From Candidatus Nanosyncoccaceae bacterium (GTDB lineage: Bacteria > Patescibacteriota > Saccharimonadia > Saccharimonadales > Saccharimonadaceae), in assembly GCA_050950465.1 (NCBI GenBank), contig JBMNHQ010000002.1:33670-97669 (forward strand): DNA of 64,000 bases, in the 5' to 3' direction. The notes beneath the pieces were generated by a model. That model was given only the letters and a program-made list of their open reading frames with translations. It searched no databases and had not been told where the DNA came from. Position numbers and translations under genes: made by a program. The number at the start of each line of letters is the position of its first letter. Within the stretch, counting starts at the first letter, position 1. This document shows, piece after piece, positions 16,356 to 61,613 of this stretch.

Positions 16356-16409
16356 TCTCCATATTACATATTACACAATAAACTTACTTAAAAATCTGTA
16401 CCAAAACCC

Positions 16410-16438: not shown

Positions 16439-16498
16439 AAATGTAGCTACTAAGTGTAGTGTGTAAACAATAAATATTCAGGGGAAGGGTTATCTCTG

Positions 16499-23263: not shown

Positions 23264-23379
23264 GGGGCTAGGATAAACAATTTGCGAGTCGTGTTAGATA
23301 ATGGTACGGCCATTGACTTTTTATAGTTTTTGTGATACATTAGAAGTATCTAACAAACAAAAACAAAAAGGATCAATAA

Positions 23380-23607: not shown

Positions 23608-23638
23608 GGTTAGCGAAGTAGAAGGGGAAAACAAAAAT

Positions 23639-26155
23639 ATGTCAATAATTAAACAAAAGATTCTCGGTTTCATCGGTCGGCACCGTCTGCTAGTGTTTTC
23701 GCTATTTATTGCAATCTTATTGCCGATAGCGACTAGTGCGGCTGGTGACGTGAAAATCCGCATGATCAGTGATGGTCAAAAATACTTAAGAAATGCTGCT
23801 ACTGGCAAATATATGACGGCCAATCGTATGCTTGGGCCAAATGGTGAGGTTTATTTCTGCGCCAATAAGGGGTTGCGCGGACCGGACTATTTATCGCGCG
23901 GCTCTTATGGCACATACACCTCGCCTCAAAAAATGGGTGATTTACCCAAAAAGGTCCTTTTGTTAGGTTATCCAAATCGTCAGATAGCTGGCTTTAACGA
24001 GAGCGAGCAGTACCATATTACGCAAAATGCCTTCTGGGCAAGCTCAACTAATTATGTAGTAAACGCTAAAAACACAGTCGGGAATTTGCGTGCAACATCA
24101 TATGTTAACGGCAAGGCTCGAAATGAACAGATTTTGCAGGCAGTTAAGGATCTTTATAATCACGCTGTCAGCACCAATATTGCTGAGTTTAATCCAAGCC
24201 TAACCTTGAATTCGGCGCCTCAGGCTACATTAAAGGGCGATATCTTTGTAGCAGGCCCCTTTTCAGTTACTGGCAAAAACGTCAGGTCGGCTAATCTCGC
24301 ACTGAGTGCAACCGGTGTTAACAACGCTAGATTTTACAATGAGCAAAATCAAACTATTACCCATATTGGTCTTGGACAGAAATTTTACATAAGTTTTCCT
24401 AAGCTAGGTAATAGTCTAAAGGGTACGGCAAACATTAATCTAAGCGGTAAGCAATCTTACTTAGAGGGATTGATTTATAAGCCACCGCAAAGCAATATGC
24501 AAGACATGGCGACATTGGAGGTTGTTGAGACGGCCGCCAATTTAAATACAGCTGCTAAATGGGAATTGACTCCATCTGGTCGTGTCGAAATACTTAAAAT
24601 TGATGCTATTTCTTCAAAACCCCTCTCTGGTGCGACGTTTGAGATTTATAACTCTTCTGGACAAAAAGTTTATTCAGCCGTAACTGATAATAGTGGAAAA
24701 ATTACCTCTTCAAATTTAAACGCTGGTAAATACACTTTCAAAGAAACAGTAGCGCCATCGGGCTATTATCTAAATGATAGAGTTGGCACAGTTGAAATTA
24801 AAACTAATGGCGAGTTGGTGCGCGCCAGTTTGAGTAATCAACCAATTCCAGACACACCTATTCAGATTAAAAAAGTGGATGCTAACACTAAGACAGTCTT
24901 GCGTGGTGCAAAGATTGAAGTACTCAATTCTAATAATGTCAAAGTATTTTCAGGTCTAACCGACAATAATGGCATAGCTGAAGTTGGCCAGCTCAAGGCT
25001 GGTAAATATACTTACAAAGAAGTTGAGCCACCTGCTGGCTATTATCATAATACCAACACTTATGACTTTACTATTAACCCAGGCGATAGCCTAAAGGTAC
25101 TAACCATAGAGAATACCGCTGTAAAGAAAATAACCGTCTGTGATTTAACTAGTCGATCTATGGTGACAATTGAAGAGACTAAGTTCGATTCTGCAAAATA
25201 TTCTAAAAATCAAGACGACTGTACAAGCATTGAAGTCTGTGACCTGACAACCCGTAAGTCTACTACCATCATCAAAACAGCCTTTGATAAAACCAAACAC
25301 TCTAACAACTGGGATGATTGTACAAGCATCGAGGTCTGCGATTTAACAACCCGCAAACCAGCTACCATCATCAAAACAGCCTTTGATAAAACCAAACACT
25401 CTAACAACTGGGATGATTGTGAGTCGATTAAGGTCTGTGATCTAAAAACTCGCAAATCGGTTACCATCATCAAAACAGCCTTTGACAAAACTAAGCACTC
25501 TAATAACCTAGACGACTGTACAAGCATTGAAGTCTGTGACCTGACAACCCGTAAGTCTACTACCATCATCAAAACAGCCTTTGATAAAACCAAACACTCT
25601 AACAACTGGGATGATTGTACAAGCATCGAGGTCTGCGATTTAACAACCCGCAAACCAGCTACCATCATCAAAACAGCCTTTGATAAAACCAAACACTCTA
25701 ACAACTGGGATGATTGTACGGAAACTAAGGTATGTGAGTTGGATAGTAAAAAAGTAATTACGATTGTAGAATCAGCTTTCGATCCAGCTAAACATTCACG
25801 CAACTTAGAAGACTGTAATCTTAAGATTGAAGTTTGTGAGTTGGAAACCAAGAATATCATCATCATCGACGAAACAAAGTTTGATTCCGTCAAACATTCA
25901 AAGAATCTAGAAGATTGTATTCCGAAAATCGAAGTTTGTGACCTAAACACTAAACAGATAGTTACTATCAAAGAGGCAGACTTTGATGAAACCAAATATT
26001 CCAAGGATCATGAAGACTGTCTCTCGACTCCAGCTGAACTGCCAAAAACTGGTCCACTGGAAACCGTGGCTGCATTGATTGCCATCACCGCTGTTAGCTT
26101 GTCGATTACCTACTGGTATAAATCAGCTCAAGCAGTTAAACAGATTAAGCGCTAA
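23639..26155 (+). CDS. LPXTG-anchored adhesin: signal peptide, thioester (TED/TQXA) domain, two SpaA/Cna-B prealbumin-like domains, nine 33-aa Cys-bounded repeats
   Basis: Signal LLVFSLFIAILLPIATSAAG. VYFCANKG (Cys74, nt 23858-60) with LLGYPN and HITQNAFW (Gln129, nt 24023-25) match thioester-domain motifs. Two copies of the G.kYt.kEt.aP.GY pattern. LPKTG at 26039-26053, then a helix and a basic tail. Confidence 0.85.
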   Translation: MSIIKQKILGFIGRHRLLVFSLFIAILLPIATSAAGDVKIRMISDGQKYLRNAATGKYMTANRMLGPNGEVYFCANKGLRGPDYLSRGSYGTYTSPQKMGDLPKKVLLLGYPNRQIAGFNESEQYHITQNAFWASSTNYVVNAKNTVGNLRATSYVNGKARNEQILQAVKDLYNHAVSTNIAEFNPSLTLNSAPQATLKGDIFVAGPFSVTGKNVRSANLALSATGVNNARFYNEQNQTITHIGLGQKFYISFPKLGNSLKGTANINLSGKQSYLEGLIYKPPQSNMQDMATLEVVETAANLNTAAKWELTPSGRVEILKIDAISSKPLSGATFEIYNSSGQKVYSAVTDNSGKITSSNLNAGKYTFKETVAPSGYYLNDRVGTVEIKTNGELVRASLSNQPIPDTPIQIKKVDANTKTVLRGAKIEVLNSNNVKVFSGLTDNNGIAEVGQLKAGKYTYKEVEPPAGYYHNTNTYDFTINPGDSLKVLTIENTAVKKITVCDLTSRSMVTIEETKFDSAKYSKNQDDCTSIEVCDLTTRKSTTIIKTAFDKTKHSNNWDDCTSIEVCDLTTRKPATIIKTAFDKTKHSNNWDDCESIKVCDLKTRKSVTIIKTAFDKTKHSNNLDDCTSIEVCDLTTRKSTTIIKTAFDKTKHSNNWDDCTSIEVCDLTTRKPATIIKTAFDKTKHSNNWDDCTETKVCELDSKKVITIVESAFDPAKHSRNLEDCNLKIEVCELETKNIIIIDETKFDSVKHSKNLEDCIPKIEVCDLNTKQIVTIKEADFDETKYSKDHEDCLSTPAELPKTGPLETVAALIAITAVSLSITYWYKSAQAVKQIKR
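25124..26020 (+). repeat. Nine tandem 99-bp (33-aa) coding repeats, consensus IEVCDLtTrK..TIiKtaFDktKHSnN.dDCts
   Basis: Read directly from the translation. Repeats 2-3 and 5-6 are DNA-identical, reflecting a ~297-bp higher-order duplication (about 25210-25410 = 25507-25707). Confidence 0.9.
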
Positions 26156-47281: not shown

Positions 47282-47341
47282 TAGATAAGTATACTCTTCC
47301 ATTATACCATAAGCACTATAAAAAGTCCATAGCCAAAACCC

Positions 47342-47370
47342 TTGTGCTTATTTACTTTTCGTGTTAGATT
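47342..47370 (+). promoter_or_regulatory. Candidate promoter of giant surface-protein gene copy 2 (identical to 16410-16438)
   Basis: Same TTGTGC-17-TGtTAGATT, in a block identical to 16401-16545. Confidence 0.5.
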
Positions 47371-47430
47371 AAATGTAGCTACTAAGTGTAGTGTGTAAAC
47401 AATAAATATTCAGGGGAAGGGTTATCTCTG

Positions 47431-50400
47431 TTGAAATTAGTTACTCGCAAACTAACTAAGTTTCAACCTAAGCTAAATAAAGCAACACAGTTTAGGTTAG
47501 GGTTTAAGTTTGGGTTTAAGTCTAAGGCTAACTCAGTTCAAAGCTCTAGCCCTAACTCTAATCTAAGCCTAAAGACTAATTATGGTTTTAAGATAAAAAC
47601 CAAACACCAAACCAACCAAACCCTAAGACTAGGACTAACACTAGCTTCACTCATACTCATAACCTTCCTATCACCTATACTAAAGAAGACCTTCACTCCA
47701 CACACAACTAACGCTACTACCATAACTAAAACATGGCAGTTAAACCAGAATATTCCCACTCAATACGATTACAACACACATGAAATTGAACAAACCGCTA
47801 CTGGCGCTAGACTAAAACAACTACCAAGCTCCATCACACTTACGGCTGATGAAGAGAGTTTCTTTGATGTGTGGGAGCCATATTATGGCGGTGGGCAAAC
47901 TTCAATAGTTGACGACCCTTCCAGTGGTGGTAATGGTAAAGTGTATAATGTTGCTAATCATGTTCAGCTTTTCTCTAATTTCTTTGTACCAATTAATCCA
48001 GATTTTACTTATACTATAAGTGGAAGATTTAAGTCAGTTGGTGCAGGTGGTGAATCTATGGTGTATTTTGGTCTTGCACCATATGATAAAAATTATTATC
48101 AACCAAACTTTATACAGCGGAGTGATTACCGTGCTGTTGGCGATACGGCCACTATTGCTAATTATGATGATTCAACTATCACAGTTCAAGCTGGCGTAGA
48201 TTTATCGACTTGGAATCAAGGTGGAGTGGATTTAGCTGTTGATCGTTTAATTGGCTTCTATTTTGATGGTCAGACTGACAAATTACCAGATTTTGTCATA
48301 TCGCCTCAAGAGTCTGGTTATTATTATAGTACAGATCCGACTAGAGGGGCTTATTCCACTGCTAGTGGTACAACCATTAATCTTAATACACCGATTCCGC
48401 CTGAAGTGCAGGCTAAAATAAACTTAGATGTAACGAAGATTAAGAATCATATGGGCGACTCTACATATCTTTATACAGCAGCTAAGTCAAAACTTATTCC
48501 CGCTAATATATACACTACCTATTCGGGTAGTATAACTGGCATAAATACTAGCTTGGGTCAAAATATACATAACTCATTCCCATACGAAACCAATTGGGCA
48601 AAAATAGTTATCTTACTCAACTATGGTCAAGATCATAATTATGCTACCAACTTCGACGACATCTCTCTCACTATCACTGGTTCTCAACCAATGTATTCAT
48701 GGCAGTCACCAGCTATTGAGCCACCATATAGCCAATACGTTAGTGGTCAACTAACATCTATGAGTCACACGCTTGGCTCTGGCTCATCAGACAGTGTTAA
48801 ATACCAAATCTCATTAGATAATGGCAAAAGCTGGCTTTATTACAACACGACCACTAACGCTTGGGAAAGTGACTTATCTCAGCGAGTATCAAATAGTAGT
48901 ATTTATCGCATTACTACCATCCGTGACCACGGCGCCCTCAAAGCCAATACTATCGAAGAAATCAACGCCAACTTAAACAAGTTACCAGCCACCGATGGCA
49001 TCCAATTCAAATGGCGCGCCTTCTTAGAGTCCAACGGCACTCAGCAGGTTGAACTCCAATCAGTCACTCTCACAGCCAATAACCTTGATCCAACTATCAC
49101 ATCCGTCACACCTAGCATTGGTCAAACCACTGGTGGTGATACTATCACTATACGTGGCAGTGGCTTCTCTAACGATGAGTTTGAGTACTTTGTTGGTACT
49201 TGTGGTATGACTAAAAGCGGCAAGCTTTACTGCTGGGGTGATAATACTTGTGGCCAACTAGGTGATGGCACTTTTACTAGCCGTTTAGATAAACGACCAA
49301 TCGCTCAAGGTGAAGTCCCAACCACTACAACCTTCACTCAGATTGTTAAAGGCTGGCTACACATGTGTGCTCTTGGCGACGATAACGAAATCTACTGCTG
49401 GGGTGACAATCAATATGGCCAATTGGGCGATGGTGCTTTCGACAACCGCAACATTCCAACTAAAGTCAACAAAGGCGCCATACCAGCCAGTGCTAAAATA
49501 ACCTCTATTTCTACAGCTTATTACCACACCTGTGCTCTAACCCAAGACGATAAGATGTATTGTTGGGGGCAAAATGACCTCGGTCAACTCGGTGACGGTA
49601 CCACTGACAATCGCTCACTACCAGTTGAAGTTAACCGTGGTAATATCCCAACATCAGTTAGAATCAGAAGTCTGCAGACTGGCTGGAAGCATAGCTGTGT
49701 CCTCGCTGGCGATAATAACGTCTATTGTTGGGGTCGAAACACTCTTGGTCAGCTCGGTGATGGTACTACTACTCATAGATCATCTCCAGTCCTTGTAATT
49801 CAAGGTCAGCGTGACCCTAGCTATAATATTACTCAATTATCCGTCGGTGCTCACTATGCCTGTATCAAGGATACTGATAGTAAAGCCTATTGTTGGGGTC
49901 GAAATGTTGATGGTGAATTAGGTAGCGGAATTACATCAAACTACGAAACTAGCCCAGTCGCTATTGCCCAAGGAGTTATGCCTGATCAAAATATTAAAAC
50001 CATCATGGCAGGCTATTGGAGCACTTATGCGATTAGCTCTGATGACAAACTTTATGCTTGGGGGCATAACGGAGACGGTTCCTTAGGTGATGGCACCACT
50101 ATAAATCGCAATACACCAATATTAGTCTCGTTACCGTACAGTTCTGGTGTAAATATCTCTCATACTAATTTCTGGTGGCGCTCTGCTCGAGTTACTGTGT
50201 CTAATGGACATCATTATATTTGGGGATTAAACAATCATGGCCAATTAGGTGATGGCACACAAACTAGCTACCACACACCAACCCACATCCGCTACTCCAC
50301 TAACCAAGTCAAGTTTGGTGACAACTACGCACCACAAGTTGAGCGTATTTCACCATATGAACTGCGTGTCCGAAACCCAGCGCATGAAGCTGGAGTAGTA

Positions 50401-50553
50401 GGAGTAACAGCCACCAACTCAACTGGCGAGACTACCACCAAAGCCGATTCTTACACCTACGAAAACCCCACCACACCAGAAATAACTAGCATCTCACCTA
50501 ACGAAGGTCTGATCTACGGTGGCGAGAAGTCACTATATCTGGCACTAATTTAG
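47431..50553 (+). CDS. Giant surface protein, copy 2, 5' part (anchor, N domain, IPT1 with nested 7-blade RCC1 propeller, start of IPT2), ended by frameshift
   Basis: TTG start in a context identical to copy 1 and collinear with copy 1 throughout. After ...ITSISPNEGLIYGGE the frame runs out (KSLYLALI, TAG 50551-53) because of a 1-nt deletion relative to copy 1. Confidence 0.9.
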   Translation: MKLVTRKLTKFQPKLNKATQFRLGFKFGFKSKANSVQSSSPNSNLSLKTNYGFKIKTKHQTNQTLRLGLTLASLILITFLSPILKKTFTPHTTNATTITKTWQLNQNIPTQYDYNTHEIEQTATGARLKQLPSSITLTADEESFFDVWEPYYGGGQTSIVDDPSSGGNGKVYNVANHVQLFSNFFVPINPDFTYTISGRFKSVGAGGESMVYFGLAPYDKNYYQPNFIQRSDYRAVGDTATIANYDDSTITVQAGVDLSTWNQGGVDLAVDRLIGFYFDGQTDKLPDFVISPQESGYYYSTDPTRGAYSTASGTTINLNTPIPPEVQAKINLDVTKIKNHMGDSTYLYTAAKSKLIPANIYTTYSGSITGINTSLGQNIHNSFPYETNWAKIVILLNYGQDHNYATNFDDISLTITGSQPMYSWQSPAIEPPYSQYVSGQLTSMSHTLGSGSSDSVKYQISLDNGKSWLYYNTTTNAWESDLSQRVSNSSIYRITTIRDHGALKANTIEEINANLNKLPATDGIQFKWRAFLESNGTQQVELQSVTLTANNLDPTITSVTPSIGQTTGGDTITIRGSGFSNDEFEYFVGTCGMTKSGKLYCWGDNTCGQLGDGTFTSRLDKRPIAQGEVPTTTTFTQIVKGWLHMCALGDDNEIYCWGDNQYGQLGDGAFDNRNIPTKVNKGAIPASAKITSISTAYYHTCALTQDDKMYCWGQNDLGQLGDGTTDNRSLPVEVNRGNIPTSVRIRSLQTGWKHSCVLAGDNNVYCWGRNTLGQLGDGTTTHRSSPVLVIQGQRDPSYNITQLSVGAHYACIKDTDSKAYCWGRNVDGELGSGITSNYETSPVAIAQGVMPDQNIKTIMAGYWSTYAISSDDKLYAWGHNGDGSLGDGTTINRNTPILVSLPYSSGVNISHTNFWWRSARVTVSNGHHYIWGLNNHGQLGDGTQTSYHTPTHIRYSTNQVKFGDNYAPQVERISPYELRVRNPAHEAGVVGVTATNSTGETTTKADSYTYENPTTPEITSISPNEGLIYGGEKSLYLALI
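49189..50300 (+). repeat. RCC1 propeller 1 of copy 2 (7 blades, approximate bounds)
   Basis: Seven CWG/AWG/IWG blade motifs, from KLYCWGDNTCG to HHYIWGLNNHG. Confidence 0.85.
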
Positions 50554-50573
50554 ATAATTTTAAGTTTAAACAA

Positions 50574-53500
50574 ATGGCTAAATCAGGTGGACCAACTAAT
50601 CACAACTGTGTTATTGGTCTAGATGGTTGGGTTTATTGTTGGGGGCGTAATGAATCTGGTCAACTTGGTACTGGCGATACCAATAGCCGCTCTACTCCAG
50701 TTGCTATCCAGCGTGGTGAAATACCAGCCGATGCTACTATTGAGTCTCTCTACATTGGTGGACGCCATGGTTGCGTTATTACTGACGCAGGCGATGCTTA
50801 CTGTTGGGGTGAAAACAACTCTGGTCAACTTGGTAACGGTCTATCAGGTGGGAGGGGTGACTCATTTGACCTTGGTATTGATCAGTCTACTCCAGTAGCT
50901 GTCCAACGAGGTATTATACCAACTAACGTTAAATTTTCCCAAATGGCCTTAGGCGGTGATGCTAGCGTCAATGGTTCTCCACCTGAGCACACCTGCGCCC
51001 TCGACTCAGCAGGTCAAGCCTACTGTTGGGGATATAACTACTATGGCCAACTCGGCACTGGTAATACTACTAGCTCCAATATCCCAGTTGCCGTCCAGTC
51101 TAATGACCTTGGCCACGCTCTCTATGGTAAGACTATTACCCAAATCACGGCTGGCTACTCTCACACCTGCGCCCTCGACTCAGCTGGCCAAGCCTACTGT
51201 TGGGGAAATAATTACCATGGTCAACTTGGTACTGGTGTGAGTGGTGGTGTCTCATATTATTATGATGACGGTATTGACTTCAACGTCCCAGTCCCCATCA
51301 AAGCTAATGACCCAACTGACGCTCTCCATAACAAAACCATCACCCAAGTCATAGCTGGTCGGCAGCACACCTGCGCTCTCGACTCAGACGGTAAGGTCTA
51401 CTGCTGGGGGTATAATAACTATGGCCAACTCGGCACTGGTAACGCCACTGACTTCAACGTCCCAGTCCCCATCAAAGCTAATGACCCAACTGACGCTCTC
51501 CATAACAAAACCATCACCCAAGTCATAGCTGGTCGGCAGCACACCTGCGCTCTCGACTCTACTGGCAAAGCCTACTGTTGGGGATATAATCAATATGGTC
51601 AACTCGGCACTGGTAATAGCACTAGCTCCAATGTACCAGTTTCCGTCAAAGCTGACCAACCAACCGATGTTCTCTACGGTAAAATTATTACGCAAATCAC
51701 AGCTGGTGGCTATGACACCTGCGCTCTCGACTCAGCTGGCCAAGCCTACTGTTGGGGATATAACTACTATGGCCGGCTCGGCATTGGTAATAATACTAGC
51801 TCTAATGTCCCACTACTAGTCAAACCAGGCTATCTCATCTACTTTGGTGGTACACCAACTAGCTTGGGTCTCTATCCAACTGGTAATAACACTAAATTAA
51901 CCAGTATTGAACTTAAAGTCATATCTCCAGCTGTCAGTGGACCGGCTACTGTTAATATTACTCTTCACTCTACTACTACCAACACTACCTATAACACCCT
52001 CAACCAAGTCTACACTTTCATTAGTCCACCAACTCCAATTATCACCCAAGTCATTCCTAACGCTGGCTCAGCTAATGGCAATACTGCCATAAGAGCTACT
52101 AACTTATCTAACCTCAAGTTAGCCGATGATTTTACTCAAATTACAGCTGGTGGTAGTCACACCTGCGCTCTCGACTCAGATAATAAAGCTTATTGTTGGG
52201 GAGGTGGCTACTCTGGTCAACTCGGCACTGGTAATACTAACAACTCTAATGTCCCAGTCCTCGTCAAAGCTGATGACCCAACTGACGCTCTCTATGGTAA
52301 AACCATTGCGCAAATCACCGCTGGCAGCTCTCACACCTGCGCCCTCGATTCCACCGGCCAAGCCTACTGTTGGGGGCATAACCAGTATGGCCAACTCGGC
52401 ACTGGTGATACCACTAACTCCAACGTCCCAGTCGCCGTCCAGTCTAACGACCCAACTGACGCTCTCTATGGTAAAACTATTACTCAAATCACGGCTAGCC
52501 AGCACCACACTTGCGCTACTGACTCCACTGGTCAAGCTTACTGTTGGGGAAGAAACGGCTTTGGCCAACTCGGTAATGGCGATACTAACGACTCCAATGT
52601 CCCAGTTCTAGTTGAAGCTAATAATCCAACTGATGCTCTCTATGGTAAAACCATTGCGCAAATCACCGCTGGCACCTCTCACACCTGCGCTCTCGATTCC
52701 ACCGGCCAAGCCTACTGTTGGGGATATAACGGCTCTGGCCAACTCGGCACTGGTGATACCACTAACTCCAACGTCCCAGTCGCCGTCCAGTCTAACGACC
52801 CAACTGACGCTCTCTATGGTAAAACTATTACTCAAATCACGGCTAGCCAGCACCACACTTGCGCTACTGACTCCACTGGTCAAGCTTACTGTTGGGGAAG
52901 AAACGGCTTTGGCCAACTCGGTAATGGCGATACTAACGACTCCAATGTCCCAGTTCTAGTTGAAGCTAATAATCCAACTGATGCTCTCTATGGTAAAACT
53001 ATTACCCAAATCACGGCTGGCACCTCTCACACCTGCGCTCTCGATTCCACCGGCCAAGCCTACTGTTGGGGATATAACGGCTCTGGCCAACTCGGCACTG
53101 GTGATACCACTAACTCCAACGTCCCAGTCGCCGTCCAGTCTAACGACCCAACTGACGCTCTCTATGGTAAAACTATTACTCAAATCACGGCTAGCCAGCA
53201 CCACACTTGCGCTACTGACTCCACTGGTCAAGCTTACTGTTGGGGAAGAAACGGCTTTGGCCAACTCGGTAATGGCGATACTAACGACTCCAATGTCCCA
53301 GTTCTAGTTGAAGCTAATAATCCAACTGATGCTCTCTATGGTAAAACTATTACCCAAATCACGGCTGGCACCTCTCACACCTGCGCCCTCGATTCCACCG
53401 GCCAAGCCTACTGTTGGGGGCATAACCAGTATGGCCAACTCGGCACTGGTGATACCACTAACTCCAACGTCCCAGTCGCCGTCCAGTCTAACGACCTAAC

Positions 53501-54737
53501 TGACGCTCTCTATGGTAAAACCATTGCGCAAATCACCGCTGGCAGCTCTCACACCTGCGCCCTCGACTCCGCTGGCCAAGCCTACTGTTGGGGATATAAC
53601 TACTATGGCCGGCTCGGCACCAAACAATCGGGCATCGACTTATCTATGCAGCGTTACACCCCCGCCTATGTCATGATGAAGTCCGATCCACTGGAAGTCA
53701 GCTTTGGCACTACAGCTGAACACACCGCCGGCACAGCTGGACTAGCCACAGCCGTCTCGTCCTTTGATGTTCCAACTGGTCAGTATTACATCCCAGGCAC
53801 CACTACACTAACCCTTAACACTCCAGCTCACTCTGCTGGTCCCGTAGCCGTAGTAGTAAAGAACGCTGATGGTCAATCCAGCTCTAACACCATTGCCGCT
53901 GACAACTCTAATAAGTACACCTACACCAGTGTCCCGGATAGCCCAACCAACCTAACCGCCAATGCTACACCAGTCACTAACCAAGGCATCAACTACAACA
54001 TCAATCTAAGCTGGACAGCACCAGTCAGTGATGGCTATAGTCCAATCACTGACTATCTCATAGAGTACTGCATTAGTAATAGCTCTGGTGTCTGTAACCC
54101 ATCTCCAGAAGGGGACTGGACTATCTACAATGATGGCACCAGCACTAATACCAGTACTACCATAAGCTCTCTCCCAGCTAGCCCATCAGCCTACTATACC
54201 TTCAGAGTCTCAGCTATTAACAACATCGGCACTAGCCAACCTAGTAACACTCCTACAGTCCAAACTAGCTTCATCACACTGTCTTCATCAGTTGACACTG
54301 TCACTATTAACATCAACCCATCAGCCAGTGGTAGTACTAATACCTTCTCATCCACTACCCATAATCTCATAGCCAACTCTAACACCAACTACAACATCAC
54401 ACTATCTATGCCTAGTACCACCCAAACTCTATCCAATGGCACTCACACCATTAACCCCACATCAGCTAATGCCTCCAATCCTCAATTAGACCTCCCAGCC
54501 AACACTTGGGGTTACCGACTCAATAACACTACCTTTGGCACCACTACTACCATAGAGACTAATGTCCCTAATAGCCAATACACTTGGGCTCAAGTTCAAC
54601 AGAGCACCACACCAGACCTCATCTACACTGGCACAGGCAATCACACCTTCCCAGTCTACTATGGCTTAAAGGCTAGCCACACCCAAGCCTCTGGTACCTA
54701 TACTGGCACTGTTACCTATACAGCTACGACGCAGTAG
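50574..54737 (+). CDS. Giant surface protein, copy 2, 3' part (rest of IPT2 with 7-blade propeller, IPT3 with 9-blade propeller, FN3, C-terminal domain)
   Basis: The frame is open from 50502. Translated from 50526 it reads EVTISGTNLDNFKFKQMAKSGG..., collinear with copy 1 (EVTITGINLDNMKWKQVAAGG...). The ATG at 50574 is internal and has no SD. Contains 16 CWG blades and an FN3 domain (about 53931-54262) with the LSWTAP tryptophan intact. Confidence 0.9.
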   Translation: MAKSGGPTNHNCVIGLDGWVYCWGRNESGQLGTGDTNSRSTPVAIQRGEIPADATIESLYIGGRHGCVITDAGDAYCWGENNSGQLGNGLSGGRGDSFDLGIDQSTPVAVQRGIIPTNVKFSQMALGGDASVNGSPPEHTCALDSAGQAYCWGYNYYGQLGTGNTTSSNIPVAVQSNDLGHALYGKTITQITAGYSHTCALDSAGQAYCWGNNYHGQLGTGVSGGVSYYYDDGIDFNVPVPIKANDPTDALHNKTITQVIAGRQHTCALDSDGKVYCWGYNNYGQLGTGNATDFNVPVPIKANDPTDALHNKTITQVIAGRQHTCALDSTGKAYCWGYNQYGQLGTGNSTSSNVPVSVKADQPTDVLYGKIITQITAGGYDTCALDSAGQAYCWGYNYYGRLGIGNNTSSNVPLLVKPGYLIYFGGTPTSLGLYPTGNNTKLTSIELKVISPAVSGPATVNITLHSTTTNTTYNTLNQVYTFISPPTPIITQVIPNAGSANGNTAIRATNLSNLKLADDFTQITAGGSHTCALDSDNKAYCWGGGYSGQLGTGNTNNSNVPVLVKADDPTDALYGKTIAQITAGSSHTCALDSTGQAYCWGHNQYGQLGTGDTTNSNVPVAVQSNDPTDALYGKTITQITASQHHTCATDSTGQAYCWGRNGFGQLGNGDTNDSNVPVLVEANNPTDALYGKTIAQITAGTSHTCALDSTGQAYCWGYNGSGQLGTGDTTNSNVPVAVQSNDPTDALYGKTITQITASQHHTCATDSTGQAYCWGRNGFGQLGNGDTNDSNVPVLVEANNPTDALYGKTITQITAGTSHTCALDSTGQAYCWGYNGSGQLGTGDTTNSNVPVAVQSNDPTDALYGKTITQITASQHHTCATDSTGQAYCWGRNGFGQLGNGDTNDSNVPVLVEANNPTDALYGKTITQITAGTSHTCALDSTGQAYCWGHNQYGQLGTGDTTNSNVPVAVQSNDLTDALYGKTIAQITAGSSHTCALDSAGQAYCWGYNYYGRLGTKQSGIDLSMQRYTPAYVMMKSDPLEVSFGTTAEHTAGTAGLATAVSSFDVPTGQYYIPGTTTLTLNTPAHSAGPVAVVVKNADGQSSSNTIAADNSNKYTYTSVPDSPTNLTANATPVTNQGINYNINLSWTAPVSDGYSPITDYLIEYCISNSSGVCNPSPEGDWTIYNDGTSTNTSTTISSLPASPSAYYTFRVSAINNIGTSQPSNTPTVQTSFITLSSSVDTVTININPSASGSTNTFSSTTHNLIANSNTNYNITLSMPSTTQTLSNGTHTINPTSANASNPQLDLPANTWGYRLNNTTFGTTTTIETNVPNSQYTWAQVQQSTTPDLIYTGTGNHTFPVYYGLKASHTQASGTYTGTVTYTATTQ
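50580..51830 (+). repeat. RCC1 propeller 2 of copy 2 (7 blades of ~58 aa, approximate bounds)
   Basis: Seven YCWG.N..G.LG.G motifs. The blades carry an extra DPTDAL(Y/H)(G/N)KTI segment not present in copy 1. Confidence 0.85.
52248..53639 (+). repeat. Tandem array of four 348-bp units (two RCC1 blades each) inside propeller 3 of copy 2
   Basis: The AATGTCCCAGT unit starts recur at 52248, 52596, 52944 and 53292, an exact 348-bp period. The two central units differ at only a few bases, and the flanking units are more diverged. Confidence 0.9.
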
Positions 54738-54805
54738 GGGGCTGGTCAGTCATGACTAAAAGTAGTAAAATAGGAGTGTTTCAGACAAATACCTAAAGGA
54801 GCAAA

Positions 54806-55192
54806 ATGGCGAAAGATTTAGAAATTAACGCAATTAAATACGAGCTTGATGAGCAAATTAAAAAATATGCTGATAAGAAGTTAAAAAAACTTTACGGTTA
54901 TTTGCCACGTCATGCTGGTAAAAGCGCTAAAATCAAAGTTAATCTAGAGAAATTATCTAAGAAGCGTGATGATCATTTTCAGGCGACCGTTGTTGTGACC
55001 GTCCCAGGGAAAACTCTGACTGCCAGTGGCAATGCTACTAATATGGCAGCTGCAATTGATATCGTACAATCTAAGATGCTCTCGCAAATTCGACGTTACA
55101 AAACCGAGACCATTCCTCAGCTTGGCAATCGAACTGAGTTGTTTGTTGGTCTAAAACGTCGATTATTTCGTGACCGCTCCAACGAAGGGTGA
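54806..55192 (+). CDS. hpf: Ribosome hibernation promoting factor / RaiA family (short form)
   Basis: The S30AE-family pattern: I....el.e.ikkY...Kl.kl......a.v.v.l.k........a.v.v.vpg..l.a. AAAGGAG SD. Ends in TGA. Confidence 0.8.
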   Translation: MAKDLEINAIKYELDEQIKKYADKKLKKLYGYLPRHAGKSAKIKVNLEKLSKKRDDHFQATVVVTVPGKTLTASGNATNMAAAIDIVQSKMLSQIRRYKTETIPQLGNRTELFVGLKRRLFRDRSNEG

Positions 55193-55296
55193 TTTTTAGT
55201 GGTTTTGGTCTTTAAAAAAATGGCCAAACACCGTATAATTAGACAGAGTAGAATTATTAAAGTTTAATTCAGAATTGGATGAAGGGTTAGGTACCG

Positions 55297-57921
55297 ATGG
55301 CTAGTGGTAGCAAAGTTCTAAATAAAATTTTTGGTGATCCGCAAAAACGGAAGCTAAAACAACTACAAGCAAAGGTGGATAAGATCAATAGCTTGGCGGA
55401 TAAATATGCCAAAATGTCAGATGCTGAGCTTAAAAAACAGACAGATGTCTTAAAGAAACGCCTAACTAAGAAAACGGTTACTTTAGATACAATCTTACCT
55501 GATGCTTTTGCCGTAGTACGTGAAGCTTCAGAGCGCATGCTCAAAATGCGACCCTTTGACGTTCAATTAATCGGCGGTATGGTGTTGCACGAAGGTAATG
55601 TCGCTGAGATGAAGACTGGTGAGGGTAAAACCTTGGTAGCAACTATGCCAATTTATCTCAATGCTTTGGAAGGTAAGGGTGTTCATTTAGTAACTGTAAA
55701 CGACTATTTAGCGCAGCGTGATGCTGGCTGGATGGGTAAAGTTTATAATTTTCTGGGTTTAAGTGTCGGCGTAATTATAAATGACGCCTCGTACATTTAC
55801 GATCCGTCCTATCATAGTGAGAAACACGACGATCCACGCATGAAGCCACTGAAGCCTTGCACGCGCAAAGAAGCTTATGATGCCGATGTGACTTACGGCA
55901 CTAATAATGAGTTTGGTTTCGATTACCTACGCGATAACATGGTTAATGATGTCAATTTGTTACGTCAGCGTGAGCTTAACTTTGCTATAGTTGACGAAGT
56001 TGATTCGATTTTAATTGACGAAGCTCGTACACCATTAATTATCTCAGCGCCAGCGGCCGACAATCCTGATAGCTATCGCCAGTTTGCTCGCATAGCTGCT
56101 CAGTTAGAGGGGGATGATTACGAATTAGATGAGAAGCATCGCAGTGTGGCTTTGACTGACAAGGGTGTAGAAAGAGTTGAGCAACTACTGGGAATCGACA
56201 ACTTATATAGTCCAGAGCACGTACGCTTGATTTATCATACTAATCAAGCCATCCGAGCCGAAACCTTGTTTAAGCGCGATCGAGATTACGTTGTTACCAC
56301 TGGTGGTGAGGTTATTATTGTTGATGAACACACTGGTCGTTTGATGCAAGGTAGGCGCTATAATGAGGGCTTACATCAGGCAATTGAGGCTAAAGAGGGT
56401 GTCAATGTTTTGCAAGAAAGTATGACTTTGGCGACGATTTCGTTCCAGAACTATTTTCGCTTATACAATAAACTCTCGGGTATGACCGGTACGGCTATGA
56501 CTGAAGCAGAAGAGTTTCAGCAAGTTTATGGCTTGGATGCCTTTGAGATACCACCAAATCGAAAGCTAGTCAGGATTGATCATGATGACCTGATTTACAA
56601 GACAGAAGATGGCAAATACCGCGCGATTGTTGAAGCGGTTAAAGAGCATCACAAAGCTGGTCGTCCAGTTTTAATTGGTACCGGCTCAATTGCTAACAAT
56701 GAATTACTTGCCTCCTATCTCGATAAGGCCAAATTGTCTTATGAACTGCTCAATGCTAAGAATAACGAGCGTGAGGCAGCGATTATAGCTAAGGCTGGTC
56801 AGAAGGGTGCAATTACTCTGGCTACCAATATGGCAGGACGCGGTACGGATATTGTTTTAGGGGAGGGTGTGCGTGAATTAGGTGGTTTGGTGGTGATTGG
56901 TTCAGAGCGTCACGAATCGCGTCGGATTGACAATCAGCTGCGTGGACGTGGTGGACGCCAAGGTGATCCAGGCGAAACTCAGTTTTTTGTTTCCACCCAA
57001 GATGATTTAATGCGGATTTTTCAAGGCGAGCGAATTTCAATGTTGATGGAACGCTTAGGTGTTGATGAGGATACTCCAATTCAAAACAAGGCGGTTTCTA
57101 AGACAATTGAGATGGCGCAAGCACGAGTTGAGGGATTTAACTTTGATACTCGTAAAAACGTAGTTCAGTACGATAACGTAATCAATCGTCATCGTCGTGT
57201 AGTTTATGGTATTCGTCGTAAGATCTTGGAAGGTGATGATATAAAACCAGAAATTACCCGTTTAATTCGTGAGAAAGCTGAAGAGTTGGTGATACTACCA
57301 GCTAAACTGAACCATGATTTTCAAGATAGTTTTGAGGCTCTAAGTGATAATCTAAGTGAGGCAAAAATCGCTAAAATTGGTGATATGGGTAAAGAGGTTG
57401 ATCGTCGTCGAGCAGCCAAAAAATTAATCCAGCAAGCCTATGATGATAAAGAGAAAGAGATTAGTGCTGAGATCATGCGTAAGGTGGAGCGTGAGGTTTA
57501 TCTACAGGTGCTTGATACGCTTTGGATGCAGCATCTGGAGAACATGCAGTATTTGCGTGAAGGTATTCATTGGCGCAGCATCGGTCAGCGCGATCCTCTA
57601 GTTGAATATCGTTCTGAATCACAGAAACTATTTAATGGTTTACAAATCAATTTACGTGATGAAGTTTTGGGTGTTATGTTGAACTTAACCAAGCAACAAA
57701 TTACACCTGGACTAACCGATGAGAAGTATCAGACCGAGCTGACTGATGCGGCCAAGGGGGCGGTTAGTAAGGGTGTTAATGAAATTTCTTCTGGTGAAAG
57801 AAACCGTGATGACGATTTTAAAAAGAAGCCTAGTCGGTCTAGTGCTAAAAGGGGTGGAACGAAGGTGGTGCGCCGAAAGAAAAAGGCGCAGCGGGCAAAA
57901 CGTAAAAAAGGTCGTCGCTAG
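55297..57921 (+). CDS. secA: Preprotein translocase ATPase SecA
   Basis: MKTGEGKTLVATMP (Walker A), DEVDSILIDEARTPLIIS (DEAD-like), TNMAGRGTDI, LRGRGGRQGDPG. The basic C-terminal tail has no Cys-rich zinc motif. Confidence 0.96.
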   Translation: MASGSKVLNKIFGDPQKRKLKQLQAKVDKINSLADKYAKMSDAELKKQTDVLKKRLTKKTVTLDTILPDAFAVVREASERMLKMRPFDVQLIGGMVLHEGNVAEMKTGEGKTLVATMPIYLNALEGKGVHLVTVNDYLAQRDAGWMGKVYNFLGLSVGVIINDASYIYDPSYHSEKHDDPRMKPLKPCTRKEAYDADVTYGTNNEFGFDYLRDNMVNDVNLLRQRELNFAIVDEVDSILIDEARTPLIISAPAADNPDSYRQFARIAAQLEGDDYELDEKHRSVALTDKGVERVEQLLGIDNLYSPEHVRLIYHTNQAIRAETLFKRDRDYVVTTGGEVIIVDEHTGRLMQGRRYNEGLHQAIEAKEGVNVLQESMTLATISFQNYFRLYNKLSGMTGTAMTEAEEFQQVYGLDAFEIPPNRKLVRIDHDDLIYKTEDGKYRAIVEAVKEHHKAGRPVLIGTGSIANNELLASYLDKAKLSYELLNAKNNEREAAIIAKAGQKGAITLATNMAGRGTDIVLGEGVRELGGLVVIGSERHESRRIDNQLRGRGGRQGDPGETQFFVSTQDDLMRIFQGERISMLMERLGVDEDTPIQNKAVSKTIEMAQARVEGFNFDTRKNVVQYDNVINRHRRVVYGIRRKILEGDDIKPEITRLIREKAEELVILPAKLNHDFQDSFEALSDNLSEAKIAKIGDMGKEVDRRRAAKKLIQQAYDDKEKEISAEIMRKVEREVYLQVLDTLWMQHLENMQYLREGIHWRSIGQRDPLVEYRSESQKLFNGLQINLRDEVLGVMLNLTKQQITPGLTDEKYQTELTDAAKGAVSKGVNEISSGERNRDDDFKKKPSRSSAKRGGTKVVRRKKKAQRAKRKKGRR

Positions 57922-57929
57922 GAGGTAAA

Positions 57930-59216
57930 TTGAAGCATCGAGTTTCCGAGGTTGTTTTAAAAAATGGTGCCCGCGGGCTTCTAATTGACGTGCCGGACGC
58001 TACAGTAATGGAGTTCGAGTTTCAATTTCGAGCTGGACATCGTCTGACGCGTTCCGAAAAGATCTATCAAACTGCCCATGTAATGGAGCATATGGCGTTT
58101 GGTGCTAATCGTGAGTTTGACAGTGAGCGTGAATTCACGACTGAATTCTCAAAAAATGGCGCTCGTCACAATGCCTACACCTCTGATTTCACAATGGGCT
58201 ATGTAGCATCTTGTGCGGATTTTGAGTGGGAGCGCATATTGCGACTACAGCAATTGGCAATCTGTTCACCTCAATTTAGTCAAGAGCAGCTCGAAGCAGA
58301 GAAGGGTAATATTCGTAATGAGTTGTCAGGCTTACTAATGCACGATGTAGTTCTGCTGTGGCCTCGACTCGAGCAGGCCTTGGGTGGTAAGACTATGACA
58401 TTAGAGGATCAGATTAAAACGATCGATAATATTACCTTAGATGACGTCGTTGAGCATCATACACTGACGCACACTATTCAAAATATGCGCTTTATCATCG
58501 CAGGGAAAATCACTGGCAGACGTAATCAAATTAAAAAAATCCTCGAATCATGGGAATTACCAGCAGGTGAGTGTTTGGAGATTCCTTTTGATGAATATCA
58601 GAGCAGCAAGCCAGTTTTTGTTTCACGTAGCGAATCAAAAAGTTTAACTTATGGTCTAACTATTTCACTGCCTCGGGTATTAACACAATCTGAACAGCAC
58701 GCACTGCGCGCTTTGAATCATATCCTGACAGGTACACTGTATTCACGTCTTTTTGGTAAGGCGCGTGAGCGAGGATTGACTTATAATATGCGTTTTAATT
58801 CGACCTTAAGTCATTATGAGACTTGTTGGGAGTTAAATGGTAAAGTAGTACCAGAAATGGCTGATGAATTGATCGATTTAATTGTTGCTGAGCTAAAATT
58901 GGCAGCTGAAAAGGGTGTGACTGACGATGAAATCGCCAACACTGAATCATATCGCTTAGGTGCTTTTCAGATGGGTCTTCAGACGGTTGGGGCGATTGTA
59001 GATTTCTATTCTGGAGCTTATTTCAGGAATGACGAGATCATCAATTACAAACAAATACCGGAGGCTTTCCGTAGCGTTACCAAGCGACAAATTAATAAGT
59101 TGCTGCGTGATTTCTTGACTAATGGTCGCTGGGTTTTCGGTGTAGTGGGTAATACGAACATGCGTTTAGTTCGTCGTAATAACGAGAAGTTTAAGGAGGT
59201 GTTGCTTAATGCCTAA
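57930..59216 (+). CDS. M16-family (pitrilysin/insulinase-like) zinc peptidase
   Basis: Inverted zincin motif HVMEH (HxxEH) near the N-terminus and a two-domain length. TTG start 5 nt after GGAGG. Confidence 0.8.
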   Translation: MKHRVSEVVLKNGARGLLIDVPDATVMEFEFQFRAGHRLTRSEKIYQTAHVMEHMAFGANREFDSEREFTTEFSKNGARHNAYTSDFTMGYVASCADFEWERILRLQQLAICSPQFSQEQLEAEKGNIRNELSGLLMHDVVLLWPRLEQALGGKTMTLEDQIKTIDNITLDDVVEHHTLTHTIQNMRFIIAGKITGRRNQIKKILESWELPAGECLEIPFDEYQSSKPVFVSRSESKSLTYGLTISLPRVLTQSEQHALRALNHILTGTLYSRLFGKARERGLTYNMRFNSTLSHYETCWELNGKVVPEMADELIDLIVAELKLAAEKGVTDDEIANTESYRLGAFQMGLQTVGAIVDFYSGAYFRNDEIINYKQIPEAFRSVTKRQINKLLRDFLTNGRWVFGVVGNTNMRLVRRNNEKFKEVLLNA

Positions 59217-60516
59217 AGCTATTGTGATTGCTGGTTATGGGCTAGAAGGGCAGAGTGCTTATAAGTATTTAAGTCGATTATATCCGTCGGCTAAGTTTAC
59301 GATTTATGATCAAAAAGCTACACCCAAGATGCCAATTCCAAAAGGGGTAGAGTTAGTTTGTGGCGATGAGGTTGACTTTGGAGCAATAAAAGCCGATATG
59401 ACTATTAGAACACCGTCGATTTCGCCTAAACGATTTTCTTCCGAGGCTCACGTAACTTCTGTGACGAATCTGTTTTTTGAGCGCTGTCCAGCGCCAATTA
59501 TTGGTGTGACCGGTACAAAGGGTAAGGGTACGACTTGCGGTTTGATTACCGCAATTTTACAGGCGGCAGGTAACACGGTGCATCTAGTGGGTAATATTGG
59601 TAAGCCAGCTCTAGATACCCTAAACCAAATAAAATCGACTGATATTGTAGTCTATGAGCTAAGTAGCTTTCAGTTGTGGGATATGCAATATAGCCCAAAA
59701 GTAGCAGTAGTTCTAATGGTTGAACCTGATCACTTAGACATACATATCGATCAAAAAGAGTATGTTGAGTCCAAGGCTAATTTGCCTCGCCTTCAAGGTC
59801 CGGGTGATATAACAGTTTGCCACCCAACCAATAAATTGTCGAATCAAATTGCTAAAACTAGTCAGGGTAAAATAGTCCATTATGGTGTCGTTGATGACGG
59901 TGGGGCCTATGTTAAATCGAACAATTTTTTTGTTCATAACCAGATGATATGTCCAGTAAGTGATTTGACGATTGTAGGACAACACAATGTTGAGAATGCT
60001 TGTGCAGCAATCACGGCTGTACTTAGTTTTACGTCCAGTTGGCCGGCTATAGCACGGGGTCTAAAAGATTTTACAGGCTTGCCGCACCGTCTAAAATATC
60101 TGCGCACTTTACGAGGCGTAGATTACTATGACGATAATTATTCCACTCAGCCCGAGGCAGCAATCGTGGCCGTACGTGCCATAACACAACCAAAGATTCT
60201 TATCGCTGGTGGTCACGATAAGGGGGCGGACTTTACCCACTTGGCGGATGAAATACAAAAATCCGGTTCGGTTAAAAAAATCTTATTAATTGGCGACACT
60301 GCTAACAAAATTAAAACGGCATTAGAGCGAGTTGGTTTCACAAAAACGGAAATAATTCAGGGGAAAAATCTGAAAGAAATTGTTGTTTTGGCGCAATCGT
60401 ATGCAACTTCTGGGGATGTGGTACTAATGAGCCCAGCTTGTGCTAGTTTTGGACTGTTTCGTGATGCAACTGATCGGGGTGAGCAATTTATTCAAGCTGT
60501 GGCGGAGCTAAAATGA
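59209..60516 (+). CDS. murD: UDP-N-acetylmuramoyl-L-alanine--D-glutamate ligase
   Basis: Mur ligase P-loop GVTGTKGKGTT, central domain DHLD, and C-terminal PHRLKYL...AGGHDKG. Confidence 0.9.
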   Translation: MPKAIVIAGYGLEGQSAYKYLSRLYPSAKFTIYDQKATPKMPIPKGVELVCGDEVDFGAIKADMTIRTPSISPKRFSSEAHVTSVTNLFFERCPAPIIGVTGTKGKGTTCGLITAILQAAGNTVHLVGNIGKPALDTLNQIKSTDIVVYELSSFQLWDMQYSPKVAVVLMVEPDHLDIHIDQKEYVESKANLPRLQGPGDITVCHPTNKLSNQIAKTSQGKIVHYGVVDDGGAYVKSNNFFVHNQMICPVSDLTIVGQHNVENACAAITAVLSFTSSWPAIARGLKDFTGLPHRLKYLRTLRGVDYYDDNYSTQPEAAIVAVRAITQPKILIAGGHDKGADFTHLADEIQKSGSVKKILLIGDTANKIKTALERVGFTKTEIIQGKNLKEIVVLAQSYATSGDVVLMSPACASFGLFRDATDRGEQFIQAVAELK

Positions 60517-61613
60517 GTTTAAAGCAGGTAGCTGAGGCAATCTCTGAGTTAAAAGCTGAGATTTTACAGGCGGTTGGCCAGTTAGAAATTGACGCCAAAA
60601 GTAAAGAATTGGAGTCTTTGGACGCTAGGGTGGCGGACAGTTCAATCTGGAATGATGTCGAAAAGGCTCAGGCTTTGATTCGAAAGACTAACAATTTACG
60701 AGCTCAGATTGAGCCTTGGCAGGTATTAAGAACTCAAATAGTTGATCTGGATGAATTATTAAAAGAGATGGCCGATGAGTCTTTAGAACAGGAATTTACT
60801 AGTCAATTAAAAGGCCTGCAAGAGGATTTTAAAAAACTTAAAACTGACCTGTTGTTTAGTGGCGAATACGATGATCATAATGTTATTTTAAAAATCAGTT
60901 CTGGCGCCGGTGGTACCGAAGCACAAGATTGGGCATCGATGCTAGAGCGAATGTATTTACGTTGGTGTGAACGTTCAAACGTTAAAGCAGAGCTGATTGA
61001 TCGAAGTGTTGGTGAAGAGGCGGGTATAAAAAGCGCCACTTATGGTTTGAGTGGTGTTAATGTTTATGGTCGAATGAGAGGTGAGCACGGTGTTCATCGC
61101 TTGGTTCGTTTAAGCCCTTTCAATGCTGATAATTTGCGACAGACTAGTTTTGCCTTAGTAGAGATATTGCCGGATATTGATACGCCAGATGAAGTTGTGG
61201 TTGCTCCAGAGGATTTAAAGATTGATGTTTTTCGAGCTGGCGGTCATGGTGGACAAAGTGTCAACACGACCGACTCAGCAGTGCGAATTACTCATTTACC
61301 AACAGGATTAGTAGTGGCGATTCAAAATGAAAGGTCGCAATTACAAAATCGTGAAAAGGCTATGCAGATTTTACGTTCAAAATTGATTCAGATGCAGCTG
61401 GAGCAGAGTGCAGCCAGTATTAGTGAATTAAAAGCAACTGAGTCGGCTAGTTGGGGAGCACAAATTCGTAACTATGTCATGCATCCATACACTATGGTTA
61501 AAGATACTCGTACGAAATATGAAGAAAAAGACGTGACGGCGGTGTTGGATGGAAAAATCAATGAGTTTATGATGCGTTATCTGGAGTGGTCGGTGGCAAA
61601 TAGCTTGAAATAA
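60513..61613 (+). CDS. prfB: Peptide chain release factor 2, encoded in one continuous frame (no programmed +1 frameshift)
   Basis: SPF motif in HRLVRLSPFNA and GGQ in [24 protein letters not shown]. The N-terminal domain is contiguous with the rest. ATGA overlap with murD. Confidence 0.93.
   Translation: MSLKQVAEAISELKAEILQAVGQLEIDAKSKELESLDARVADSSIWNDVEKAQALIRKTNNLRAQIEPWQVLRTQIVDLDELLKEMADESLEQEFTSQLKGLQEDFKKLKTDLLFSGEYDDHNVILKISSGAGGTEAQDWASMLERMYLRWCERSNVKAELIDRSVGEEAGIKSATYGLSGVNVYGRMRGEHGVHRLVRLSPFNADNLRQTSFALVEILPDIDTPDEVVVAPEDLKIDVFRAGGHGGQSVNTTDSAVRITHLPTGLVVAIQNERSQLQNREKAMQILRSKLIQMQLEQSAASISELKATESASWGAQIRNYVMHPYTMVKDTRTKYEEKDVTAVLDGKINEFMMRYLEWSVANSLK

Follow-up and report, generated by a model that had tools for sequence, protein, structure and literature searches.

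The evidence gathered in this study leads us to understand two giant genes for secreted, adhesin-like proteins of a Candidatus Nanosyncoccaceae bacterium (Saccharibacteria) as a recombining pair of paralogs, both copies of which have probably been inactivated recently by single small lesions that are fixed in the sampled clone. We assign this reading a probability of roughly 0.55. The two genes are part of a stretch of 64,000 nucleotides (nt), referred to here as the window, taken from a 494,950-bp contig of a metagenome-assembled genome (MAG). They lie 31 kb apart in direct orientation and are collinear, with copy 1 at 16499-23263 and copy 2 at 47431-54737, both on the forward strand, as are all genes, tracts and lesions of the window given with coordinates below. 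An initial annotation of the sequence had considered neither paralog intact, and this is what we find: copy 1 carries one in-frame TGA, copy 2 lacks one A, and the restored frames comprise 2254 and 2435 codons, respectively. We consider it most likely that both genes have recently lost function and are now pseudogenes in the making or, at most, alleles with weak expression, fixed within a single clonal lineage.

Translation of copy 1 across its full length meets a sole internal stop at codon 2014, where TGA (22538-22540) stands for the conserved Trp codon of the FN3 motif LSWTAP; the Trp is invariant across all aligned relatives, and with this codon restored the whole gene is open. The frame ahead of the premature stop (16499-22540, 2013 codons; GenBank MGI6612334.1) encodes a signal peptide, an N-terminal domain similar to lectins or carbohydrate-binding modules (CBM), TIG domains and RCC1 propellers. 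The tail, continuing in frame past the TGA (22541-23263) and ending in TAG, encodes the remaining FN3 and a Pam-pilin-C-like domain of ∼150 amino acids (aa), so that the lesion removes most of FN3 and the entire pilin-like domain. Its counterpart in copy 2 is an intact TGG for Trp (54012-54014), found also in a copy-2-type contig from another sample (L019), and a potential donor to mend the lesion. As the initial annotation had stated, the TGA lies within a tract that matches copy 2 closely, with 65 exact nt upstream and, downstream, 29 and then 699-700 exact nt; the sole other difference near the TGA is T in copy 1 for A in copy 2 at 22570. TGA is an ordinary stop in this genome, since it closes 10 of 42 open reading frames (ORFs), ftsZ among them. 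Genes for RF1 and a second release factor are present as well, and an altered code with TGA read as Trp or Gly is ruled out on these grounds. Eight nt past the TGA/TGG codon begins a hairpin (22549-22580 and 54023-54054) of 12 bp in copy 1 and 10 bp in copy 2. Its interpretation as a readthrough signal, similar to a selenocysteine insertion sequence (SECIS) and strengthened by T22570, was rejected: the z-score is −1.45, and the same 12-bp hairpin with the T occurs in a TGG-bearing homologue (L020), being absent from others. It is probably incidental to the sequence that codes for VSDGYSPITDY.

Copy 2 is interrupted at ∼50525, in GGTGGCG^AGAAG (50518-50529), by being one A short compared to copy 1; the alignment places GGTGGCGAAGAAGTC of copy 1 (at 19496) against GGTGGCG-AGAAGTC of copy 2. 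The deletion falls within the conserved TIG strand GGEEVTI(T/S)G, and a single A added at this point opens the full frame without a stop. As it stands, the 5′ frame (47431-50553, 1040 codons; MGI6612361.1) ends in an out-of-frame EKSLYLALI followed by TAG. The 3′ frame (50502-54737; MGI6612362.1) is open from 50502, has its first ATG at 50574 (1387 codons) and encodes RCC1 propellers, TIG, FN3 and the Pam-pilin-C-like domain; neither a ribosome-binding site nor a signal peptide was found for this ORF. The lesion thus cuts the protein in two, with signal peptide, lectin-like tip and first propeller on one side and all the rest on the other. The break was originally described as following a stretch ∼95% identical to copy 1; for the 100 nt ahead of it we measure 96%, and a 59-nt exact run (19400-19458) is part of this interval. 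On the downstream side, the value drops to 82% for the first 50 nt and to 59% for the first 100 nt, and exact matches right at the site extend for just 10 and 12 nt, which places the frameshift at the eroded 3′ edge of its tract. A programmed frameshift at 50525 was considered and rejected, there being no X XXY YYZ slippery motif in 50502-50550 (sequence read by eye) and no significant structure downstream (fold z = 0.0). Slipped-strand switching at a repeat is likewise ruled out: neither gene has a homopolymer of ≥7 nt or a dinucleotide repeat of ≥5 units, and the frameshift site offers only GAAGAAG, hence no repeat tract exists at either lesion. Because the TGA cuts off the FN3/pilin-like end and the frameshift splits copy 2, neither locus can make its full product by standard decoding, and we infer loss of function for both.

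The lesions are not peculiar to the MAG. Same-strain contigs, traced through neighbouring housekeeping proteins in two project series of the Joint Genome Institute (JGI) and several SRA runs, have flanks 100% identical to the window; all samples represent one near-clonal lineage, and all sequences are consensus contigs. The TGA recurs in a 236-kb contig (L007, JGI 3300060823) and in L012 (JGI 3300060803). The 1-nt deletion recurs in L001 (JGI 3300060680, a contig seen in two samples) and in L108 (JGI 3300049643), the latter being 100% identical to the window over 50194-51149. JGI contigs end exactly 127 nt inside exact repeats, at window positions 22697, ∼23143 and 54617 (L007, the contig of L001, and L014), a pattern that suggests short-read assembly on a de Bruijn graph with k = 127, and the JGI contigs are therefore taken as independent short-read assemblies. 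Two independent assembly errors in repeat-rich DNA, a mundane explanation raised in the initial annotation, are refuted by these recurrences. Sequencing or assembly artefacts more generally appear highly improbable: the region is repetitive, and one six-base patch does differ between assemblies, but each lesion recurs base for base in at least two other independent metagenome assemblies, in unique or paralog-marked context. In the comparison of repair states, which covered five assemblies from two JGI projects and the MAG, there was no TGG at copy 1, no TGA at copy 2 and no 7-base run at copy 2. No intact variant was present in the 90%-identity clusters of a 15-billion-protein collection, and the assemblies covering the sites, as consensus sequences, show no repair or transfer of a lesion between the copies. 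The exact DNA pattern of the frameshift site had no match among metagenome contigs, and a single-protein scan of genome contigs gave no matches.

The six-base patch is located in one RCC1 blade of copy 1 (20430-20455), where the window differs from the 236-kb JGI contig. Both versions recur in other blades of copy 1 (19891/21193 versus 20425/20590), and the difference reflects either intragenic (micro-)conversion or an assembly path that was ambiguous. In other samples, many contigs stop within 16351-16539 and 47362-47566, at or near the 5′ leader shared by the two genes. There is a practical warning in this for work on such genes: short-read assemblies break at the exact repeats, and the gene bodies cannot be phased to their flanks.

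Exchange of sequence between the two paralogs by conversion, proposed at the outset for these surface proteins, finds ample evidence in their mosaic structure. The background between the copies has ∼65% nucleotide identity with saturated synonymous sites (proportion of synonymous differences, pS, 0.6-0.8), and the ratio of nonsynonymous to synonymous divergence (dN/dS) of 0.1-0.3 shows that purifying selection has long acted on both copies. Set into this background are at least six tracts of low or zero synonymous divergence (pS 0-0.17). The first is an exact match of 139 nt (16401-16539 and 47332-47471) that runs from the 5′ leader with its GGGGAAGG ribosome-binding site through the TTG start to coding nt 41. 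It is followed by two adjoining tracts with 89% and 92% identity (17619-18262 and 48635-49275), which include a 169-nt exact run at 18065-18233; by a 51-nt exact run at 18359-18409; and by a tract of ∼90% identity (19369-19539 and 50391-50560) that holds the 59-nt run upstream of the frameshift. The 3′ tract (53647-54744 and 22173-23270) rises in identity from 88% through 98% to 100%. Its final 700 nt (22571-23270 and 54045-54744), identical in both copies and ending 7 nt past the stop codon, would be the youngest conversion tract. Exact runs of ≥60 nt have a chance expectation of <1e-8 at 65% background identity; the shared tracts are therefore real, and recurrent gene conversion is secure. 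What one expects of converting paralogs, namely a full-length pair with near-zero-synonymous tracts in a diverged background, is what is found here. The view that complementary lesions in shared tracts carry special meaning fares less well. Their location stands, but as evidence the argument is weak: the high-identity tracts cover ∼28% of the genes, so that both lesions would fall inside tracts with p ∼0.08, and complementarity is automatic for any two different lesions.

Two contigs from other samples reveal how variable the gene bodies are between otherwise identical genomes. At the copy 1 locus, L012 is identical to the window over 22313-24743, TGA and T22570 included, and has 72 differences across 22014-22312. 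At the copy 2 locus, L019 is identical over 53949-61334, TGG and A22570 included, has 87 differences in 53291-53948, and its body further upstream is only 76-81% identical; its frame is open over 930 codons. The variant stretches (positions 1-340 of L012, corresponding to ∼22014-22312 of the window, and 1-2010 of L019, corresponding to ∼51300-53948) thus show bodies that differ by 13-24%, next to flanks that are 100% identical. Their synonymous divergence (dS) from the window copies is 0.4-0.7 with dN/dS of 0.16-0.25, values that argue for old functional variants brought in by recombination, as opposed to local decay. Site partitions near the TGA are mutually incompatible: three sites at 22234-22285 group copy 2 with L012 and copy 1 with L019, while seven in-gene sites at 22339-22570 group copy 1 with L012 and copy 2 with L019. 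The link between body and flank is ambiguous in both contigs because it runs through the 700-nt exact repeat. Recent transfer from a related species (ERZ2647956) as the origin of L012 was rejected; the protein-identical stretches are only ∼80% identical in DNA, which therefore indicates purifying selection and not recent exchange.

Single lesions are common in this gene family. The ERZ2647956 species, whose C-terminal region is 73% protein-identical to that of the window, has one paralog (L020) that is open apart from a gap of undetermined bases (N) and another (L021) with a single in-frame TAA (9827-9829) inside an RCC1 blade, the latter known from one contig at 7x coverage and not replicated. 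In the MAG binchicken_co117_408, from another Saccharibacteria species, one paralog (L023) is open as far as its contig extends. The other (L022) carries a 4-nt AGCT tandem duplication, AGCTAGCT (9905-9925), and as a result the TIG/FN3 junction contains a TAG, ∼10 codons away from where the TGA of the window is found. This duplication is identical in 11 loci from many runs (same site in L098-L107), the 5′ part of the gene differs between allele types, and one of the loci (L103) has an additional 1-nt insertion causing a frameshift, so that at least one case in the family shows continuing decay. Intact single-ORF homologues do exist in oral TM7 genomes, as RCC1 proteins of 720 and 1294 aa that end in FN3 and the C-terminal module. 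A homologue search with an RCC1-containing query was dominated by generic RCC1 proteins, and one with a TIG-only query found nothing.

Taken together, these data are consistent with the following course of events. Two giant secreted adhesin-like paralogs of a Saccharibacteria epibiont would evolve in concert by repeated gene conversion, which would leave identical 5′ leaders, the identical 700-nt 3′ end and several internal patches. Copy 1 would have acquired the TGG to TGA change just ahead of its FN3/pilin-like module, and copy 2 the 1-nt deletion that detaches signal peptide and tip from the rest. Inactivation would be recent in both, because the genes have been under purifying selection, there is one lesion per gene of 6.8-7.3 kb, and no stop occurs in the 1387 codons past the frameshift. 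Conversion would offer a feasible route to repair, a simple one in the case of the TGA and a harder one for the frameshift, yet no such repair was observed. The original suggestion that a conversion patch could mend either lesion accordingly holds for the TGA, with its near-perfect template in copy 2, and is less well supported for the frameshift, where the 3′ homology to the possible template (the intact GAAGAAG of copy 1 at 19502-19508) is poor.

Several points weigh against recent inactivation of both copies as the full account. The sequences are only consensus contigs of one near-clonal lineage, in which minority repaired alleles would be invisible, and a single lesion per gene, located in a conversion tract in both cases, is equally expected of a reversible system. 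Since tRNA-Trp can misread UGA at a Trp codon, some function of copy 1 may survive. Possibly L012 and L019 are extra paralogs and not alleles, in which case the genome may keep an intact copy. The assignment of the proteins to adhesins and pili, finally, rests on sub-threshold matches. Reversible recombinational on/off switching, as proposed in the initial annotation, would have short conversion patches, supplied by the sister paralog or by DNA from related cells, repair or spread the lesions and thereby maintain a mixture of ON and OFF states. We consider it unlikely. Conversion between the copies is indeed frequent and proceeds in short patches, and copy 1, copy 2, L012 and L019 exhibit four-gamete incompatibility directly upstream of the TGA; however, the assemblies compared show no alternative state at either site, and the TGA with its linked T22570 persists on two different upstream alleles. 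While the TGA is flanked by 65 and 700 nt of near-perfect homology, TGG and A22570 persist in both copy-2-type sequences despite the homogenised 700 nt adjacent to them, and the short exact flanks and low downstream identity of the frameshift offer little for a patch to act upon. Retention of an identical leader and start implies that both copies can be expressed, the frames outside the single lesions are intact, and Saccharibacteria are naturally competent (PMC10187176); but both copies are OFF simultaneously, and there is neither a silent-cassette/expression-site asymmetry nor a repeat tract at the lesions. In related species, single lesions recur in one paralog with the sister open over its readable part, as switching would have it, and the further polymorphic lesions in the broken paralog of the binchicken_co117_408 species speak for decay, not toggling. 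The co-location of lesions and tracts, not being significant, does not add to the case. By the proposed standard that lesions fixed in all reads and related strains mark plain pseudogenes, the uniform state of the assemblies leans toward plain young pseudogenes, as far as near-clonal consensus contigs can show it. A broader form of the same idea, contingency at the population level, is distinctly doubtful. According to it, lesions would turn the paralogs off, and sister-paralog or imported DNA would restore them and swap bodies between the conserved ends; host range would be altered or phages evaded; and the junction of body and FN3/pilin-like module would be the preferred control point, as judged from the TGA here and the AGCT duplication ∼10 codons away.

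Residual function of the window alleles seems improbable to us. tRNA-Trp might occasionally read the UGA, restore the native Trp and yield a little full-length, mountable adhesin, or else the truncated product of 2013 aa might act in free or membrane-held form. The lesion is exactly a TGG to TGA change at a Trp codon, with A as the next base, and it is kept on two allelic backgrounds; TGA is nonetheless a regular stop with its release-factor genes present, and no readthrough signal accompanies it, given that the 12-bp hairpin is also found in TGG-bearing L020 and is absent in others. One copy of a tip adhesin would suffice for each filament (a model, bioRxiv 10.64898/2026.03.03.709456), and in the other species the lesion ∼10 codons off, which affects the same body/FN3 junction, has been fixed across 11 loci drawn from many runs. 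Copy 2, however, would not be rescued, its frameshift having neither a slippery heptamer nor significant structure. Equally improbable, in our judgement, is that the window copies are dispensable sequence reservoirs for an intact, expressed paralog of the L012 or L019 type. Such paralogs would account for the open 930-codon frame of L019, whose body is well diverged from copy 2 yet joined to copy 2's tail and flank, and for the distinct body of L012 on a copy 1 tail; the links cross the 700-nt exact repeat, which short reads cannot phase, and divergence from the window copies is substantial (dS 0.4-0.7, dN/dS ∼0.2). Against this, no more than two copies occur in this region of the 495-kb MAG contig, the samples that yielded L012 and L019 are not those of the long contigs, alleles imported by recombination explain these two equally well, and each window copy retains a complete promoter and start, which a silent cassette would not. 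A recombining pair with two young loss-of-function alleles therefore remains our preferred reading.

Regarding the proteins themselves, Pfam identifies TIG domains, many RCC1 repeats and one FN3. WD40_RLD (the RCC1-like domain) scores 346 bits, RCC1 and RCC1_2 score 220-235 bits, and TIG and fn3 are above their cut-offs; with multiple repeats above the gathering score (PF00415/PF13540/PF25390), the proteins belong to the RCC1-repeat propellers. The N-terminus has an extended, charged leader together with a hydrophobic segment and a site that resembles those cut by signal peptidase. Residues ∼120-390 form a domain for which 1.8 billion representative proteins yielded 185 relatives; these are often parts of surface proteins of very large size that also contain FN3, Ig-like, cadherin-like or laminin-G domains. 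CBM4, legume lectins and GH12 jelly-rolls are weak structural matches to its AlphaFold2 (AF2) model (pLDDT 84). The last ∼150 residues also exist as stand-alone secreted proteins of ∼200 aa. Seven of nine members of this C-terminal family match the NCBIfam profile NF058581, CPR_Pam_pilin_C, below threshold (best E = 1.4e-6, profile positions 6-146 of 148), and the window domain itself scores 12.6 bits (E = 0.11), below the 55-bit cut-off. The AF2 model of the domain is a beta-sandwich (pLDDT 90). Its best PDB neighbours by Foldseek are type 1, P and CS20 chaperone-usher pilins, weak as matches (E ≥0.027, TM score ≤0.42), and no PDB sequence matched a profile of the domain. In another contig (L109, 9071-10702), FN3 and the C-terminal module are fused to an unrelated body of GYAW-x-DLGW-type repeats, and the two therefore represent a portable C-terminal unit. 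In a preprint on the Pam pili of candidate phyla radiation bacteria (PamA/PamB/PamT; bioRxiv 10.64898/2026.03.03.709456), the C-terminal domain is described as a truncated Ig domain into which a donor strand inserts, and PamT as a tip pilin with just one domain. From their domains and the predicted models, the proteins would be giant tip or surface adhesins mounted by the C-terminal module on a filament or the cell surface, and we regard them as candidates for pilus-tip adhesins; the sub-threshold scores do not establish them as members of the Pam family. No Pam match came from the ten genes that follow copy 1, and an operon with the chaperones PamC and PamD and with PamR was not found there.

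Concerted evolution with mutual repair by gene conversion is familiar from tufA/tufB of Salmonella and from babA/babB and sabA/sabB of Helicobacter pylori. As in these systems, two full-length paralogs at separate loci of one genome have mosaic tracts homogenised by non-reciprocal recombination, and either copy could in principle supply the sequence to overwrite a mutation in its partner; the bab and sab genes are, moreover, adhesins whose expression is lost and regained. The present case differs in that both copies are inactivated together, with neither a converted nor a repaired variant among the sequences compared. Dinucleotide repeats, by which the H. pylori loci switch as well, are absent here, and the proteins are unrelated. 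In cassette-based antigenic variation, as known for Neisseria pilE/pilS, Borrelia vlsE and Mycoplasma genitalium MgPa/MgPar, there are likewise surface- or pilus-associated proteins, short conversion patches and conserved ends around variable bodies, and the strong differences between alleles of otherwise identical genomes fit that picture. Unlike cassette systems, the window has no expression site with promoterless silent cassettes, both copies being of full length with the same 139-nt leader and start, and the consensus contigs document no variant subpopulations. The architecture parallels that of PamT and of FimH and PapG, the two-domain tip adhesins of chaperone-usher pili: a receptor-binding body and then a pilin-type domain with nothing after it. 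The resemblance to Pam pili extends to the full-length, if sub-threshold, matches of the C-terminal family; the proteins lack the N-terminal beta-sandwich and the linker strand of Pam pilins, the window yielded neither a pam operon nor chaperones, and a body of ∼2000 residues of RCC1 propellers is not described for Pam pili. PilX2, a pilus-associated protein of the Saccharibacteria member Nanosynbacter lyticus TM7x, carries a seven-bladed RCC1 propeller (PMC11623550), and hence supports a part for RCC1 propellers in host contact in this phylum. It is a type IV minor pilin with one propeller, in contrast to the several propellers, TIG, FN3 and other C-terminal domain of the present proteins, which are without a type IV pilin N-terminus.

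Saccharibacteria live attached to host bacteria by a recognition mechanism that is largely unknown, and the genes described are plausible host-binding adhesins, hypervariable between otherwise identical genomes and repeatedly found disabled. Adhesin paralogs that convert one another, lose function and may regain it are already known; the present pair would be a new case, in Saccharibacteria and with an unusual protein. If the lesions turn out to be reversible, the candidate phyla radiation would have its first described adhesin switch based on recombination, and the locus would give a handle on changes of host range. If they mark plain pseudogenes, the locus documents fast turnover of giant adhesins and active gene conversion in a reduced genome, and adds a new passenger for the Pam-pilin-like C-terminal module.

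Other features of the window and its relatives are noted briefly. Rfam and tRNA scans of the window gave no matches. The second release-factor gene (60513-61613), with PCRF and RF-1 domains and presumably prfB, is one uninterrupted ORF with no sign of the usual programmed +1 frameshift. The interior of copy 2 (52132-53617) consists of ∼4.3 tandem copies of a 348-nt unit, equal to two RCC1 blades, that are 88-92% identical, and length variation at this array is likely. Flanking genes are housekeeping by Pfam, except for a gene of 838 aa directly downstream of copy 1 (23639-26155) that combines a thioester domain (TED) with SpaA-type prealbumin-fold domains. This layout is typical of pilus-tip or covalent adhesins of Gram-positive bacteria, and a second adhesin-like gene thus stands beside copy 1. 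Downstream of the giant gene in L020 (11397-15460) and L023 (1929-5988) lies a conserved set of small ORFs of ∼185, 185, 204, 302 and 461 aa; two weak Pam_pilin_C matches and one weak PamR-like match among those of L020 make a divergent pam-like operon possible.

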